Shown here: positions 56,443-63,632 of the stretch, piece after piece | How positions within the stretch are numbered: position 1 is the first letter of the stretch | Layout of the letters: every line of letters begins with the position of its first letter | Assembly: GCA_039588275.1 (NCBI GenBank) | Contig: JBDHAC010000018.1 | Coordinates: 31,600-95,599, forward strand | Direction: 5' to 3' | From: Gemmatimonadota bacterium | Lineage (GTDB): Bacteria; Gemmatimonadota; Gemmatimonadetes; Palauibacterales; Palauibacteraceae | DNA length: 64,000 nucleotides | Program-made: the position numbers and the translations under genes | Notes under the pieces: generated by a model | Told to the model about the DNA's origin: nothing | The model's database searches: none | The model's input: only the letters and a program-made list of their open reading frames with translations

Positions 56443-58241
56443 CGAGATGTACTTTCAGCCGCGAAGGCGTCCGGAGGTTCGTTGATTACGAGCTCCGACC
56501 CGGCTTCGGCGCGTCCATGTCTGCTGATACCACCCCCGGGCCAGCGTACGACCAGGCTGTCCGCGGCCGCATGCTCGCCCAGCCCGAGTATGACCGGGTT
56601 GAGCTCGGATTGGGAAAGATACGAGGAGCCGGTCCGAACCATCCGCCGTTGCGCCGTTTCGCCGGCGTACAACGTTACGACCGCGCCGATCGCGTCGCGG
56701 TTCGGGGCCGCCCCGATCAGGCGGATGCGAAGCCAGCGAGCTCCATCCGTCGGGAGATCGTTTCGCAGCAACTTCGCCGGGCCTCCGTTCACGCTGATCA
56801 CCAGATCGAGATCTCCGTCGTGGTCAATGTCCGCGGTGGCGATCCCACGCGCCACGATTGGTTGGTCGAAGCCCCCGCCAACCTGCCCGGTCACGTCGAC
56901 GAACTGGCCCCGACCATCGTTCTGCAGCAGCTGCGGGAGTTGCGCGAACGTGACGTCCCCCTGGACCGCGTTGATGTCGGGCTCGATGTGCCCGTTGCCG
57001 AGCAGGAGATCCGGATATCCGTCCAGATCCAGGTCGGCGAACAGGAGGCCGAACGTCAACGGAAGCAGCGTCGACCGAGTGAGTCGGGCCGACCCGGCGA
57101 GGTCCTGGAAGAGCCCGTCGCCGATCTGCGTGTACAACGACACCGGCTCGTTGCTGAAGTTGCCGATCGCGATCGAGAGGCGACCGGAGCTCGTCACATC
57201 CGCCACATCGATCCCCATCCCCGCTCTCGCCCGCCCGTACTCGTCGAACGCCACCCCGGCGGGGAGCGCGTGATCGGTGAACGTCCCGTCGCCGTCATTC
57301 AGGTAGAAGAAGTTCTGGTACGTGTCGTTCGAGACGACGATATCCAGCCACCTGTCGCCGTTGAAGTCCTCCACCGCCACGCCGAGCGACTTGCCCTCGG
57401 GGTTCGCGAGTCCGACCGCGTCGGTCACGTCGATGAAGCCCGGCCCGCGAGCGGAGGGCTCGCCGCCCTGGTTCCGGTACAGGCGGCAGGATTCTCCGTC
57501 GTATTGATGCGGGGTCGCGTACGACTTGTTCGTCCCGTCCAGAGTCGTGAACAGGTCCGTTTCCGGCGTCCACTGGACGTAGTTGCAGACGAACAGATCG
57601 AGCCAGCCGTCCCGATCAACGTCCAGCCAGGCCGCACCCGTGGACCAGGCGGGAGGCGCGTCCTCACCGGGACGGTTCCCGCTCGTCCCGGTGAGAGCCG
57701 TCACGTCCGTGAACCGGCCCCCGTCGTTTCGGAGCAGCTTGTTGTCCCCGACCGCGGTCAGGTAGAGATCGGGATCCCCGTCGGCATCGTAGTCCGCAGC
57801 CGCGATTCCCATTCCGTAAAGGGGAATGTCCAATCCCGCGGCACGCGTTACATCCTCGAACCGACCGTCCCCCAGGTTCCGATACAAACGCGACGTGGGC
57901 CGGCGGCCCCCCGCTCTACCGGGCCAAGTCGTGCTGTTGACGAGCAGCAGGTCCGGCCAGCCATCCACGTCGTAGTCGAGGAAGGCGGCCCCGCTCCCGA
58001 TCGTCTCCGGCATCCACTTCTGGCCGAAGGCCCCGGTCTCGTGGATGAAATCGACGCCGGCCTCGGACGTGACGTCCTTGAAGCGGATCGACGTGACCAG
58101 GGTCCGTGTCTGGGTCGTCGCATACGCGGGACCCGTGTACGCGGGTGGGGCATCGAGCGCGGTGTCGGGCTCGCCGCACGCGCTCGACATACCCACGCAC
58201 GTGGAGGCGAGGAGAATGTGTGCAGCCGGTGAACGGTTCAT
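56439..58241 (-). CDS. CRTAC1-family lipoprotein (FG-GAP propeller plus ASPIC-UnbV)
   Basis: Lipobox 'SSAC', 'ETIGSGAAFLDYD.DG', 'RAGMGID', 'NRDAIGA', 'GSSYLSQSE...GLG', 'VRWPGG'. ATGA overlaps at both ends. Confidence 0.88.
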   Translation of the reverse strand: MNRSPAAHILLASTCVGMSSACGEPDTALDAPPAYTGPAYATTQTRTLVTSIRFKDVTSEAGVDFIHETGAFGQKWMPETIGSGAAFLDYDVDGWPDLLLVNSTTWPGRAGGRRPTSRLYRNLGDGRFEDVTRAAGLDIPLYGMGIAAADYDADGDPDLYLTAVGDNKLLRNDGGRFTDVTALTGTSGNRPGEDAPPAWSTGAAWLDVDRDGWLDLFVCNYVQWTPETDLFTTLDGTNKSYATPHQYDGESCRLYRNQGGEPSARGPGFIDVTDAVGLANPEGKSLGVAVEDFNGDRWLDIVVSNDTYQNFFYLNDGDGTFTDHALPAGVAFDEYGRARAGMGIDVADVTSSGRLSIAIGNFSNEPVSLYTQIGDGLFQDLAGSARLTRSTLLPLTFGLLFADLDLDGYPDLLLGNGHIEPDINAVQGDVTFAQLPQLLQNDGRGQFVDVTGQVGGGFDQPIVARGIATADIDHDGDLDLVISVNGGPAKLLRNDLPTDGARWLRIRLIGAAPNRDAIGAVVTLYAGETAQRRMVRTGSSYLSQSELNPVILGLGEHAAADSLVVRWPGGGISRHGRAEAGSELVINEPPDAFAAESTSR

Positions 58242-61186
58242 CTCGACGCCGCGGGAGTCATTCGCCACACCGCCAGCTCGTGCGTATGGATCGGCTGCGC
58301 CATCAGGTTCACGCCGGGGTTCGCCGCGCGGTATGCGCGAGTCACGGCCTGGGCCGCCTCATCGATCCGGTAGCGTTCGTACGCGGCCTCGGCCCGCCTC
58401 GCCTCGTCCTCCCGTCCCAGCGCGCGCAGGCTGAGCATGCGGTGGTAATGCGCGACCCGATCCTCGGGGTCGATCTCCAGGACGCGAGCCAGCGCGTGAA
58501 GCGCCTCCTCGTAGCGTCGATCCAGGTAGAGCGTGCGCCCCAATTGGCGCCATGCACCGCGGTCGCTCGGGAAGTCCTCTAGAACCCGCTCGAAGGCCTG
58601 CGCGGATTCGGGATACCGGCCGTCTTCCTGCAGGACTCCCCCCCACACCCACGCGGAACGGGCGTCGCCGGGACGGATTCCCTCAGCCCGCTGGAGTGCC
58701 TCGTACGCGGCCTGGAGGTTGCCGTTAGCGAGGGCTACGCGAGCCAGGTTGAGCGGGCCGTCCACCCGGTCCGGCTGGAGTGCCGTCACACGCTGAAACG
58801 GCTCCACCGCCGCCTGTGTATTGCCCTCCAGAAGGAGGGCGATGCCGTAGTCATTGTAGCGCTCCCAGTCCTCCTGATCGGCGGCCGAGGGCGCGGGACG
58901 TGGAATCGCCCCGCTGGAGCCCAGAACATTCAGCTCTACCTCGGTCGCGGCGATCTCGGTAACCGGAAGCACCGGTGTGGCCGTGAAGCGCTTGAAGCCG
59001 TCGGGGTTCTCCCTGAACGCGAACTCCGTGTACTCACGATCGAATTTCCTCCAAAGCAGCCTCGCCTCGAGCTTCACGCGCCGGCCCGCGAGCTCCCGCG
59101 GCACGGTGAACGCGTAGTGAGCCAGGTCCGCCGTGCCGGGCCCGATGAGATTGGCTGCGGCGGTCACATGGATGTCCTGTGCGTTCCGCTTCTGGATGCG
59201 GGCGCCGGTGGAATCCAGGACGACGGCTTTGTACGCGTGCGCGAACGGGTCCAGGCGACGGTCCTCAAGCAGCGCACCGCTGATCGCGAGGAGTCGGCCC
59301 TCCTCGTCGAGCACGCTGAACTCGAGCCAACCCTCGTTCGAGTCGTTCGTGCCGCCCGGAAAGGTGTGCCCCACCCCACGGTTCCTCACCACTACGTCCA
59401 CCAGAACCCGTCCCCCGGGGCGCAGTACGGGCCGCACGCGTTCCGGGGCGAAGACCGGCTCGGAAGACTCGCCGACGCGCAGGGCGAAGATGTCGACCGA
59501 CAGCTTGTCCTCACGCAGGAAGGCCTCGATGCGGCGAAGCGTGGCCGTGTCGCCCCGCACGAATGGGAGCGCCGTGTTTACGGCGAGAAACCGGTGCGAG
59601 CGAACCAGCCCGTCCTCCGCTGCCAGGTCGCCGAGCGGCGCCGGAACGGGCGGCATGTGGCAGTCCTGGCAGACTCGGGCCTCCGTGGGCAGGTAGAAGG
59701 TCCTGGACGCGTTCCGCGACACGCCGCTGTCATGCCAATTGTCATATTCGTCCTGCCCTCGGAGCCAGCGGTAGTCGTTGAGGGGCTCGGTGAGGCTGAC
59801 CTTGTGACAGGTAGCGCAGAACTCGGACGTCCCGAAGAACTCCTGGCGCATCTGTCGCATGTGCACGGTCGGCTTCGCCTTGATCGCCGCGTCGTGCAGG
59901 AAGGCTCGCAAGGACCCCTCTTCGGCTGAGGCGAACAGATACGGATCCTCCTGCTCATCGGCGATGTTGTAGTTGCCGTTCCCCGTCACGTCGTGGATCT
60001 GGTCGATCGCATGACAGGCCAGACACGTGATCCCGGCCTGTGCCTCGACGCTCCCACGATCGATCGGGGCGTGCATCGTCCCCGCCAACATCAGCGCCTG
60101 GTCGTGGCACCCGCTACACCATTTGCTCTTGACCCGGCCGACCGCATCCTGCGGCACGCCGAACTCCCGCAGGTGCCGAGCTACCGGTTCGGTCGCGGGG
60201 GCCGGGGTCTCGCGAAGGTCGTTAACGGTGGCTTCGTAGAACGGGTTGTTGAACGAGGAGAAGCGGTGCGCGGACGATTCCCACTGCTCCGTGACATCGG
60301 GGTGACAGCGGGCGCAGGTCTCCGCCCCGATCGCCGTCTCGGACGCGAATCCGTCGCGCTCCACCTCGCCTCGCACCGCGTCCGGCACCGAGTCATCGCT
60401 CCCGCGCGTGATGATCCGAGCCGGCAGGTAGGTCCCCGACGTGGTCGTGGCGGGGGACGGGAAGAAGGGGCTTCCGGGCGGGACGAACCCACGCGGGACG
60501 AAGACGTCGCTCGCGTCGGCATGCCTCGAGACATCTCGCGCTTTGCCCCCGGGACCCGCCCCCAGCCCGAGCTCCATCGCAGCCCGCGCTTCGGGAGTGA
60601 GCCGCACGTCGCGTCGGGTCAGTCCGTGGATCGCGATCAGGATCAGGAGACCCGCCCCGACGCCGATGGCGAAGCGGCGAACCCGTCCCGCGGGTGGACG
60701 CGTGTAGCTCACCCAGCGGTGGGTCGCGTACCCGAGGGGGATCAGCGCGGCGCACATCACGTGGATCCACCACGCCCAGCGGTGATCGCGCGTGGCCGCC
60801 GCGGTCAGGATGAACAGGCCTGTCACGACGAGCACGATCGCGACGGTCACGAACCCGACGCCCGAGAGGATGGAAGCCCGGTGACGCCGTTTCCAGACGA
60901 CGCTCAGATGGGTCGAGAAGAAAACGAGCGCCAGCGACGCGAGAAGCAGTCCGAGCCCGGTGTGGGTCAACACCATCGCCTGGAACAGCTTTGGGAGAGA
61001 GGTCTCACCGACGGCGAAGAAGCTCCATCCGAGCCCATCCGCGGCGCGGTTCGCCAACAGGTACAGCGTGTTCGCGAGCATGACGACCCCGACTCCGAGC
61101 AGCGCGCGGAGCAGGATCCGTAACCAGCGCGGGAGGATCGAGGGGAGTGCCCGTCGACCCTCTCCGGGGTGTGTAACGCCGCTCAT
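58238..61186 (-). CDS. Membrane-anchored multiheme c-type cytochrome with C-terminal TPRs
   Basis: About 5 N-terminal TM helices with His pairs; five CxxCH motifs (CARCH, CSGCH, CLACH, CATCH, CQDCH); C-terminal TPR repeats. Confidence 0.85.
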   Translation of the reverse strand: MSGVTHPGEGRRALPSILPRWLRILLRALLGVGVVMLANTLYLLANRAADGLGWSFFAVGETSLPKLFQAMVLTHTGLGLLLASLALVFFSTHLSVVWKRRHRASILSGVGFVTVAIVLVVTGLFILTAAATRDHRWAWWIHVMCAALIPLGYATHRWVSYTRPPAGRVRRFAIGVGAGLLILIAIHGLTRRDVRLTPEARAAMELGLGAGPGGKARDVSRHADASDVFVPRGFVPPGSPFFPSPATTTSGTYLPARIITRGSDDSVPDAVRGEVERDGFASETAIGAETCARCHPDVTEQWESSAHRFSSFNNPFYEATVNDLRETPAPATEPVARHLREFGVPQDAVGRVKSKWCSGCHDQALMLAGTMHAPIDRGSVEAQAGITCLACHAIDQIHDVTGNGNYNIADEQEDPYLFASAEEGSLRAFLHDAAIKAKPTVHMRQMRQEFFGTSEFCATCHKVSLTEPLNDYRWLRGQDEYDNWHDSGVSRNASRTFYLPTEARVCQDCHMPPVPAPLGDLAAEDGLVRSHRFLAVNTALPFVRGDTATLRRIEAFLREDKLSVDIFALRVGESSEPVFAPERVRPVLRPGGRVLVDVVVRNRGVGHTFPGGTNDSNEGWLEFSVLDEEGRLLAISGALLEDRRLDPFAHAYKAVVLDSTGARIQKRNAQDIHVTAAANLIGPGTADLAHYAFTVPRELAGRRVKLEARLLWRKFDREYTEFAFRENPDGFKRFTATPVLPVTEIAATEVELNVLGSSGAIPRPAPSAADQEDWERYNDYGIALLLEGNTQAAVEPFQRVTALQPDRVDGPLNLARVALANGNLQAAYEALQRAEGIRPGDARSAWVWGGVLQEDGRYPESAQAFERVLEDFPSDRGAWRQLGRTLYLDRRYEEALHALARVLEIDPEDRVAHYHRMLSLRALGREDEARRAEAAYERYRIDEAAQAVTRAYRAANPGVNLMAQPIHTHELAVWRMTPAASR

Positions 61187-61232
61187 GCCGTCGGGCGGGG
61201 GGCACTGGAAACCATGGACGGCCTGATACGCC

Positions 61233-61694
61233 CTAGCCCTTGTCCTGCAGGTCCGCGGTCCAACGAACCTCGATCGCGCCGCTCAAGGATTGCGCCGTGG
61301 GACATTTCGACTGGTGGCGCTCGAGCGCGCGCTCCACGGTCTCGCGCGCCTCGGGGGGAATACGAAGCGTGTAATGGACGACGACTTCGGTCAGAACCGG
61401 GACACCCTCACGGATACGGTTGATCCCTTCCACGTCCACCCGGATATCTTCTGGGTCCAAGAGGATCCCGCGCACTTCCAGTGCGCCGTTCAGCGTACCG
61501 AGCATTCAGCCGCCCGTGGCCGCCACCTGGTAGTCGACCGGCAGCGGAAGGTCTTTCGCATCGAGCCTGTAATGCGCCTTCACCTCACCATGCACGCCCA
61601 TATCGAACTCGGTGCCGTCGGCGAGCGTGGCGCGGCGGTGGACGCCTTCTATCTTCGCGACCCTGGCACGCGCGACGTAGAACGGTTCCGACAT
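61233..61694 (-). CDS. OsmC/Ohr-family protein, probable selenoprotein (UGA = Sec at codon 63; 153 aa)
   Basis: ORFs 61506-61694 and 61233-61505 are in frame and separated only by TGA. The join reads 'PVDYQVAATGG-U-MLGT', with a second Cys in 'HQSKCP'. A SECIS-like hairpin follows. Confidence 0.82.
61470..61486 (-). promoter_or_regulatory. Candidate bacterial SECIS hairpin GCGCACU-GGA-AGUGCGC
   Basis: Perfect 7-bp stem starting 19 nt after the UGA, with a G-initiated apical loop. Confidence 0.6.
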
Positions 61695-61826
61695 GAGTCC
61701 TCCGGTGTTCGCGATCCCTTTGCGGCAGCCCCACAGAGCACCCCATCTTCAGCCGCCGACCAATCTAGACGAGCTTTGGAGGCGATCCAAACGACGGGCG
61801 CACCCCGTAACCCTGAGCGAGGTCAG

Positions 61827-63632
61827 ATGCGACACGGAAGGTGCCGCAATCGTCACGTGCCAACCGGCATTTGGTTGTTGGCGTGCACGTTCGGCTGCGT
61901 CGGGGACACGACCGACGGGACGTCGAGCTCCGACCCGCCTCGAGGACCGCTGGCCGACCTCGCCGACCGCTATTGGGAGTTCCGTCTCGAATCCGATCCG
62001 TTCACCGGCACCTACCTCGGCGACGCGCGCTTCGACGACCGAGTCGCCGACATCACGCCGGCCGGGCAGGCCTCGCAGAGGACGCGGGTGTCAGGGTTCC
62101 TCGAAGAGCTCCTCGCGGTCGATGCCGCGGCCCTGACCGGACAGGATCGAGTCACCCACCTGGCGTTCGAGGAGGAGCTTCGAAGCGAGATCGCTCGCCA
62201 GACGTGCGGAGAGCCCGAGTGGACCGTGAACTACCGCAACGGCCCGCACGTGGCATTTCTGAACATCGCGGCCGTCCAGCCGACCCGGGCCCCGGAGGAC
62301 GGGGATCGCCTGCTGCAGCGCTGGAGGGCGATGGGTGACTACCTGGACGATTGGATCGCCAACCTTCGGGCGGGGCGAGAGCGCGGCCTGACGCCTCCGC
62401 TCGTGGGCGTGCAACACACCCTCTCGCAGCTCGAGACGCTGCTGGCACAGCCCGTCGGGAACTGGCCGCTTCTCTCCCCCGCCAGACGACCGCTGGAGGG
62501 TTGGAGCGAGCCCGAGCGAGAGCGATTCCGCAGCGAGCTCCGTGGAACCGTCGACGAGTACGTTCGACCGGCGTATGTCCGGCTGCGAGATTTCCTCCGG
62601 GATGAGCTGTCCACCGTCGCCAGGACCGGCGACAAGATCGGCGTATCGGCGCTCCCGGCCGGGGAAGCTTGTTATCAGGCACTCATTCGGGCCTTCACCA
62701 CACTGGAGCTGACGCCGAGCCAGATCCACCAGATCGGGCTGAACCAGGTGGCCGAGGTCCGAGCGGATCTGGAAGTCATCGGGGAGAGCATCTTCGGCAC
62801 CCGCGACCTGGGCGAGATCCAGCGTCGCGTGCGTGCGGACCCTGCGATGCACTTCGAGACCGCCAGTGAGATCGTGCGGGTCGCGGAGGAGGCAACCGAG
62901 CGCGGCCGAGCCGTGATGGCGGAGTGGTTCGGGCGCCTGCCCAGGGCAGAGATGGAAGTGCGCGAGGTCCCGGATTACGAGGCGCCCTACCAGACGGTCG
63001 CCTACTATCGGCAGCCGGCGGCCGACGGATCGAGACCGGGTACCTATTTCGTCAACACGTATCGTCCGGAGACGCGGACGCGGTACGAGGCCGAGGCTCT
63101 AGCCTTCCACGAGGGCATTCCCGGCCACCATTTCCAGATCGCCATCGCGCAGGAATTGACCGAGCTCCCGGATTTTCGAAGGCACGTGGGACCCGAGGCG
63201 TTCCTGGAGGGCTGGCCTCTCTACGCCGAGAGCCTGGCGAACGAAATGGGACTGTACACCGGGGAGCTGGACCAGCTCGGCCGACTGTCGTTCGAAGCGT
63301 GGCGGGCGAGTCGCCTGGTCGTCGACACGGGGATCCACGCTTTCGGGTGGACCCGCGAGCAGGCAGTGGATTACCTGCGTGAGAACACGCTTCTGGCCGA
63401 AGCCAACGTCCAGATCGAAGTGGATCGGTATACGGTGTGGCCCGCACAAGCGCTGTCGTACAAGCTCGGTCAGCTCGAGATTCTCCGGCTACGCGAGGAG
63501 GCGCGCGAAAGGCTGGGCGACAAGTTCCGAATCCAGGACTTCCACGACCGGGTCCTGGAGAACGGTGCCGTCAGCCTCTCCACGCTCGGCGATGTCATCG
63601 AGCGTTGGATCGTGGTCCGGGAGAGTTCCTGA
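61827..63632 (+). CDS. DUF885-family lipoprotein (metallopeptidase-like)
   Basis: Lipobox-like 'TFGC', 'AYY', 'HEGIPGHHFQ', 'EGWPLYAE', 'RLVVDTGIH', 'QALSYKLG', 'FHD'. Confidence 0.88.
   Translation: MRHGRCRNRHVPTGIWLLACTFGCVGDTTDGTSSSDPPRGPLADLADRYWEFRLESDPFTGTYLGDARFDDRVADITPAGQASQRTRVSGFLEELLAVDAAALTGQDRVTHLAFEEELRSEIARQTCGEPEWTVNYRNGPHVAFLNIAAVQPTRAPEDGDRLLQRWRAMGDYLDDWIANLRAGRERGLTPPLVGVQHTLSQLETLLAQPVGNWPLLSPARRPLEGWSEPERERFRSELRGTVDEYVRPAYVRLRDFLRDELSTVARTGDKIGVSALPAGEACYQALIRAFTTLELTPSQIHQIGLNQVAEVRADLEVIGESIFGTRDLGEIQRRVRADPAMHFETASEIVRVAEEATERGRAVMAEWFGRLPRAEMEVREVPDYEAPYQTVAYYRQPAADGSRPGTYFVNTYRPETRTRYEAEALAFHEGIPGHHFQIAIAQELTELPDFRRHVGPEAFLEGWPLYAESLANEMGLYTGELDQLGRLSFEAWRASRLVVDTGIHAFGWTREQAVDYLRENTLLAEANVQIEVDRYTVWPAQALSYKLGQLEILRLREEARERLGDKFRIQDFHDRVLENGAVSLSTLGDVIERWIVVRESS

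Follow-up and report, generated by a model that had tools for sequence, protein, structure and literature searches.

A predicted selenocysteine-containing OsmC-fold protein of Gemmatimonadota with a conserved hairpin inside its coding sequence

In two-cysteine peroxidases of the OsmC/Ohr type, which are homodimeric hydroperoxide reductases, the first cysteine, placed on the long helix, reduces a hydroperoxide, the second cysteine, in a C-P type motif, serves in resolution, and a dithiol reductant recycles the enzyme. OsmC-like proteins with selenocysteine (Sec, U) were predicted in 2005 from the Sargasso Sea metagenome, with three sequences belonging to COG1765, the motif UxxT and a predicted SECIS element (Zhang, Fomenko & Gladyshev 2005, PMC1088965). 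The GOS data published in 2008 added five OsmC-like Sec sequences compared with 161 Cys homologues (PMC2398784). OsmC-like selenoproteins also appear in two reviews (PMC9312934; PMC13188914). The bacterial SECIS element is described in the 2005 report as a stem-loop located just 3' of the UGA, the apical loop being small and including a G (PMC1088965). OsmC-like selenoproteins are a kind of protein already known since 2005. Here we analysed a stretch of 64,000 nucleotides from a Gemmatimonadota genome, referred to as the window, and describe a 153-codon gene for an OsmC-fold protein, of which the UGA at 61506-61508 is very probably decoded as selenocysteine, directed by a hairpin 19 nt downstream.

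The gene occupies positions 61233-61694 of the minus strand, from an ATG at 61694-61692 to a TAG at 61235-61233. The sequence GGAGG at 61699-61703 (minus strand), 4 nt 5' of the ATG, is the likely ribosome-binding site. In the list of open reading frames, the same region appears as an upstream frame of 62 codons (61506-61694, including the TGA) and a downstream frame of 90 codons (61233-61505), both on the minus strand and in the same frame, with the TGA at 61506-61508 as the sole interruption. The initial annotation, made from the DNA letters and their translations, had read the two frames as one gene joined by a single TGA at PVDYQVAATGG-UGA-MLGT, with a second Cys in HQSKCP. The coordinates of both frames could be confirmed, and the read-through product of 153 residues contains both ...PVDYQVAATGG-U-MLGT... 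and ...HQSKCP..., the latter carrying Cys131 (TGT codon at 61302-61304, minus strand) in the ...KCP... motif.

That annotation pipelines would split such a gene was also anticipated, and the public collection bears this out. Among the best 120 of 387 matches from a protein search, 104 are C-terminal pieces of 89-110 residues comprising only the part after the TGA, several of them with the source name "OsmC family protein", and the other 16 are full length. The two short frames are a single OsmC-type gene cut in two by gene callers. Taken at face value, the gene callers' own output and the many "OsmC family protein" fragments would instead describe two separate small genes, with translation ending for good at the TGA and a 90-residue protein restarting by translational coupling from the ATG next to it (TGAATG). 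An ATG does follow the TGA directly in the orthologue clade, but the paralogue clades have CTG at this place, which is not among the starts recognized by the ORF tool (ATG, GTG, TTG).

The read-through protein matches the Pfam family PF02566 (OsmC) with 49.2 bits against a cut-off of 27.5 (E = 7.6e-13), and the match covers residues 49-145, crossing the TGA, in support of the one OsmC-family Sec/Cys protein of 153 residues proposed initially. The structure of the read-through protein was modeled by AlphaFold2 from a 17-sequence alignment with a mean pLDDT of 96.3 and a pTM of 0.87, and residue 63 lies within an unbroken helix of residues 52-74. Both the OsmC domain and this single predicted helix extend across the junction at which two separate genes would meet, and each of the homologues with Cys forms one chain, 152-174 residues long, all of which argues for one protein. 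A Foldseek search against the PDB returned top matches exclusively of the OsmC/Ohr type, with 65 matches at E <= 0.001. The best match is Ta0195 (2ONF; E = 1.3e-9, TM 0.80/0.87), followed by Ohr, 1ML8 and E. coli OsmC. The fold is shared with OsmC/Ohr proteins (1UKK, 1QWI/1NYE, 1N2F, 6EB4) and with 2ONF and 1ML8, two OsmC-fold proteins of unknown function, at TM values of 0.67-0.87.

Profile matches to the solved chains are weak but consistent with one another (E = 1.8e-4 for 1UKK; E of about 0.02-0.03 for 2OPL and 1ML8). Among the curated NCBIfam models, the top one for the read-through protein is NF041052 (OsmC_like_Se, "OsmC-related (seleno)protein"), aligned over residues 48-149, yet its score of 26 bits does not reach the cut-off of 95 bits. 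Three other OsmC-like genes in the genome, all without a TGA, score 50-67 bits with NF041052, also below the cut-off; the gene described here does not appear among the matches of this genome to the model. The read-through protein obtained 11.8 bits from the OsmC subfamily model TIGR03562 (cut-off 85.8) and 15.9 bits from the SACOL1771 peroxiredoxin model TIGR03563 (cut-off 166). Since these scores are far under the cut-offs of the curated OsmC, SACOL1771 and OsmC_like_Se models, the peroxidase chemistry considered below is argued from the fold and the positions of individual residues.

In an alignment with all 16 uninterrupted full-length homologues, the column of U63 is Cys in 14, as expected if the UGA replaces the conserved Cys, and Cys131 is invariant. 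The same column coincides with the first conserved Cys of the solved chains 1UKK, 2OPL and 1ML8, and in 1UKK and 1ML8 the second Cys lines up with Cys131. The predicted Sec63 codon at 61506-61508 (minus strand) thus stands, by these alignments, in the column of the first, peroxidatic Cys, and Cys131 in that of the second, resolving Cys. Asp54 falls on the conserved Glu column of the solved relatives, and Arg20 is invariant. The remaining two homologues carry Gly (P0002) and Trp (P0017) at the U63 column. Our guess is that these two may stem from a TGA translated under other genetic codes by the gene caller. Whether real substitutions or such gene calls, they lend some weight to a reading in which a standard residue, be it Trp, Cys or Gly, is inserted at the UGA, either by near-cognate decoding or by a reassigned code. 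The prevalence of Cys at the column, which forms the classic Sec/Cys pair, speaks against a standard residue and in favor of selenocysteine.

The TGA is conserved far beyond the genome in question. Among 61 related genomes, 35 had a match, and 48 of the 51 matches listed hold exactly one TGA; of the three exceptions, one covers residues 76-151 only and stops short of the site, and two are distant homologues with 29-30% identity. In a phylum sample, defined as an even set of 301 genomes with a match threshold of E <= 1e-10, 85 genomes had a match, and all 136 matches listed carry one TGA, as a count of rows. These matches comprise an orthologue group with 53-90% identity and a paralogue group with 32-44% identity. 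In a scan with one genome per species, 80 out of 80 records among the best 80 of 170 relatives have the TGA at this column, nearly all of them titled Gemmatimonadota, Candidatus Palauibacter, Longimicrobiales or Gemmatimonadales. Of TGA and TGY, the two states that the initial annotation had envisaged for homologues, the orthologues in these surveys carry TGA; all copies of the subfamily found in the sampled genomes have TGA and none has Cys.

Because a TGA is one base change away from a Cys TGY codon, a recent nonsense mutation producing a pseudogene, or an error of sequencing or assembly, has to be weighed as well. An independent contig from a marine-sediment metagenome, which is about 87% identical and spans 61470-61718, shows no difference at 61506-61508, and the sequencing error that would have undermined the initial annotation is thereby excluded. 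Contigs from three DNA runs were compared, none of them covering the stretch in full. Of the 27 differences listed for this contig, 23 are at the third position of a codon in the proposed frame, and those located upstream of the TGA are likewise mostly at third positions. Both halves of the gene are under purifying selection, and the protein identity within the orthologue group is 53-90% over residues 1-153. As the TGA is kept across relatives and on the independent contig, a pseudogene or an error can be dismissed with near certainty.

The same genome contains a paralogue (G000:C15:55343-55786, minus strand, locus L049) with an OsmC domain and 38% identity. It has U at the same column (...AAAGG-U-LTGT...) and a GCGCGCU-GGA-AGCGCGC hairpin. 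The clade of this paralogue is likewise TGA-only in the phylum sample.

The perfect hairpin GCGCACU-GGA-AGUGCGC is located at 61486-61470 (minus strand) and starts exactly 19 nt 3' of the UGA, as was initially noticed. We regard it as the predicted SECIS element, with a 7-bp stem GCGCACU/AGUGCGC and an apical GGA loop at 61479-61477. The 7-bp stem with its GGA loop agrees with the verbal description of such elements (PMC1088965). The hairpin is present in the minimum-free-energy fold of a 76-nt segment, and that single-sequence fold is unremarkable, with z = -1.73 and 14 of 200 shuffles as stable. Because the single-sequence fold is not exceptional, the case for the element must rest on relatives. 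An Rfam scan of 61200-61750 by E-value returned three chance-level matches only, far under the gathering scores; no curated Rfam SECIS family covers the element.

The stem is found in the same register in 29 of 29 copies of the orthologue clade (clade A) and in six copies of one paralogue sub-clade. A covariation alignment (A2) was built from 34 of these sequences, leaving out a second paralogue sub-clade (nine sequences in another register) and the loci L062 and L063, where the pattern search found no Sec site. In A2, all 238 of 238 cells are in standard pairs, and 20 cells, at two pairs, are changed on both sides: pair 4 turns from C-G to U-A in four sequences, and at pair 5 there are 16 sequences with A-U and 16 with G-C. 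Not one of the 500 shuffles attained the observed paired fraction, the number of double-change cells or the covariation score, with the proviso that the sequences are related and that shuffle counts are not probabilities. The two other measures of the five were not above the shuffles, namely the number of pairs changed on both sides (reached by 103 of 500) and further pair types (500 of 500). In controls with the pairing partner slid by 1-3 columns, pairing went down to 14-70% of the cells. The compensatory changes support the SECIS-like character initially ascribed to the hairpin.

The covarying pairs connect two codons of the protein. The second base of codon 72 (Ala/Val) has its partner in the wobble base of codon 75, and the second base of codon 75 (Val/Ala) has its partner in the wobble base of codon 72, so that synonymous bases track the amino-acid changes of their pairing partner. 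Synonymous variation is also suppressed in the hairpin as a whole. Among 27 orthologues, the five fourfold-degenerate hairpin codons have a mean third-position entropy of 0.38 bits compared with 1.43 bits at 58 others, and none of the 58 non-hairpin codons is at or below 0.35 bits. A translational restart at the ATG needs neither a covarying hairpin nor suppressed synonymous variation, and together with the domain, the helix and the single-chain homologues this makes two coupled genes very improbable.

Among the best 80 of 170 relatives, 78 of the 80 named records have seven of seven pairs and the GGA loop; among them is GCGGGCU...GGCCCGC, one more variant with compensatory changes. How often such a hairpin would follow a TGA was estimated in the host genome assembly (4.1 Mb in 103 contigs, 86% complete), using as the criterion a stem of 6 bp or more with a GGA triloop, located 12-31 nt after the TGA. 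Only 145 of the 91,985 TGA triplets of the genome have such a stem; the frame is open to either side of 20,851 TGAs, and 54 of these have it. Since the hairpin is rare near the TGAs of the genome, the TGA recurs in relatives, and the same structure turns up in 78 of 80 records and 29 of 29 orthologues, its occurrence here is beyond chance.

Departures from this pattern were observed in two places. Two of the 80 records (L116 and L123) are without the GGA hairpin in this register, the loop having been lost by a Glu-to-Ala change; L116 forms instead an interrupted stem of greater length that ends in a GUUC loop, and L123 has nothing obvious. The second paralogue sub-clade (nine sequences; L046, L052-L058 and L061) keeps the TGA with a different invariant stem, CCUGGGC-GG[A/U]-GCCCUGG, the loop of which lies 18 nt 3' of the UGA. 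The pattern resembles a turnover of the SECIS element inside a single family.

The machinery for selenocysteine, for which the initial annotation had suggested a search, is encoded in the genome. The tRNA-Sec scores 75.7 bits with Rfam and is called tRNA-SeC with anticodon TCA by ARAGORN, and selA, selB and selD were found with 531, 364 and 377 bits, respectively; all four are above the curated cut-offs. The selD gene (G000:C4:94346-95272, plus strand, L015) has its own in-frame TGA at the usual Sec/Cys site (...HGAG-U-ACKLG...), and 20 nt downstream of this UGA stands a 9-bp stem capped with the same GGA triloop. The complete machinery, the selD TGA at the usual Sec/Cys site and a hairpin triloop with G first, as in selD, all weigh against the insertion of a standard amino acid at residue 63. 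Nor does anything point to a reassigned code, as TGA is common in all frames (91,985 triplets) and the gene contains only one. We therefore give the decoding of the UGA as Trp, Cys or Gly only a slim chance, and selenocysteine remains the preferred assignment.

Other TGA sites of the genome carry the same type of signal. Six of the 54 TGAs with open frames on both sides and a GGA-triloop stem were picked by eye as protein-like. Candidates C58, C10, C2 and C7 have no Pfam match and are probably off-frame noise. A CMD/AhpD-like frame (G000:C35:11975-12694, minus strand, L067; PF02627, E = 2.3e-10) has an in-frame TGA in C-F-Y-U (C-x-x-U) and an 8-bp GGA-loop hairpin, and is likely a further selenoprotein. 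A SAM-methyltransferase frame (G000:C52:23199-24365, minus strand, L068; Methyltransf_31, E = 2.7e-27) carries, close to its C-terminus, an in-frame TGA (...LWAA-U-IGGAL...) followed by a hairpin of 7 bp with a GGA loop. It is a possible member of the arsenite-methyltransferase-type selenoproteins in the GOS table (PMC2398784). CMD/AhpD-like and methyltransferase families are named among selenoproteins in the reviews (PMC9312934; PMC13188914). At least five TGA sites of the genome share the GGA-loop signal, which fits recognition by a single SelB.

The neighborhood of the gene was inspected for functional hints. On the same strand, 46 nt downstream of the OsmC gene, lies a gene for a predicted membrane protein of 982 residues (58238-61186, minus strand). 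The protein has several haem motifs of the CxxCH type, matches MtrC/MtrF-like proteins and cytochrome c554 weakly, and carries TPR repeats at its C-terminus. A DUF885 protein is transcribed divergently from the OsmC gene. A long open reading frame on the plus strand (61290-63632) runs with its first approximately 190 codons antisense through the OsmC gene. Its DUF885 match (E = 1.5e-162) does not set in before residue 237, and near 61860 there is a signal of the lipoprotein type (...LLACTFGC...). The real start of the DUF885 gene is probably near 61860, and the overlap with the OsmC gene an artefact of high G+C content. Of 26 loci, 6 have the cytochrome/TPR gene beside the orthologue and 7 have DUF885 there, as judged from flanks of about 1.5 kb, some of them cut by contig ends. 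Synteny is too weak for a functional link of the OsmC gene to its neighbors, and we rejected this idea. Scans of 61000-62000 gave no promoter-like site and one terminator-like site at 61857-61870 (plus strand), which has no bearing on the OsmC gene.

The insertion of selenium at residue 63 is predicted from sequence, and a thiol-peroxidase activity of the OsmC-fold protein is proposed by analogy. Loaded with GTP and Sec-tRNA(Sec), SelB would attach to the GGA-capped stem when the ribosome nears the UGA, leading to the insertion of Sec63. By analogy with the two-Cys OsmC/Ohr peroxidases, the selenolate of Sec63 would attack a hydroperoxide and so become a selenenic acid. Resolution by Cys131 would turn this acid into an intramolecular selenenyl-sulfide, which a cellular dithiol of the lipoyl protein or thioredoxin type could reduce. 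Asp54 and the invariant Arg20 may assist catalysis.

The protein resembles the OsmC-like selenoproteins of both surveys in its PF02566/COG1765 domain, the Sec in place of the first redox Cys, the existence of Cys homologues and the G-containing loop (PMC1088965; PMC2398784). It differs from the UxxT motif given in the first survey, as the sequence here is U-M-L-G-T with Thr at +4, and U-L-T-G-T in the paralogue, the comparison being one of the motif alone (PMC1088965). The distribution is different, too. Whereas those surveys list three and five Sec sequences among many Cys homologues, the protein here is phylum-wide and present only in the Sec form in the sampled genomes. With the solved OsmC/Ohr chains it shares the two Cys columns (U63 and C131) and the acidic residue D54 at the Glu column, but it is only 13-20% identical to them and has Sec for the first Cys and Asp for Glu. 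A literature search on selenocysteine or selenoproteins in Gemmatimonadota/Gemmatimonadetes yielded, by title or abstract opening, no paper on the selenoproteins of the phylum.

On balance, we lean towards the broader view that these sequences constitute a Sec-only OsmC subfamily found throughout the Gemmatimonadota, comprising two paralogous lineages outside the curated model, with the lineage-typical GGA triloop of the SECIS element, which also marks selD, the CMD/AhpD-like gene and the methyltransferase gene, as a key to the selenoproteome of the phylum and a co-evolution of protein and RNA at codons 72 and 75. The curated selenoprotein model NF041052 does not cover this Gemmatimonadota branch, and the database records are truncated because this Sec-aware model misses it. 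The finding is of value for annotation, as a redox enzyme common in a large phylum, most of which is uncultured, figures in the records as an "OsmC family protein" in truncated form. Its biological import is modest and opens no long-standing question. The hairpin provides a clean example of an RNA signal inside a coding sequence, in which a wobble base tracks the non-synonymous change of its partner. The occurrence of the Sec form only, in the sampled genomes, suggests that selenium matters for the chemistry of this family.
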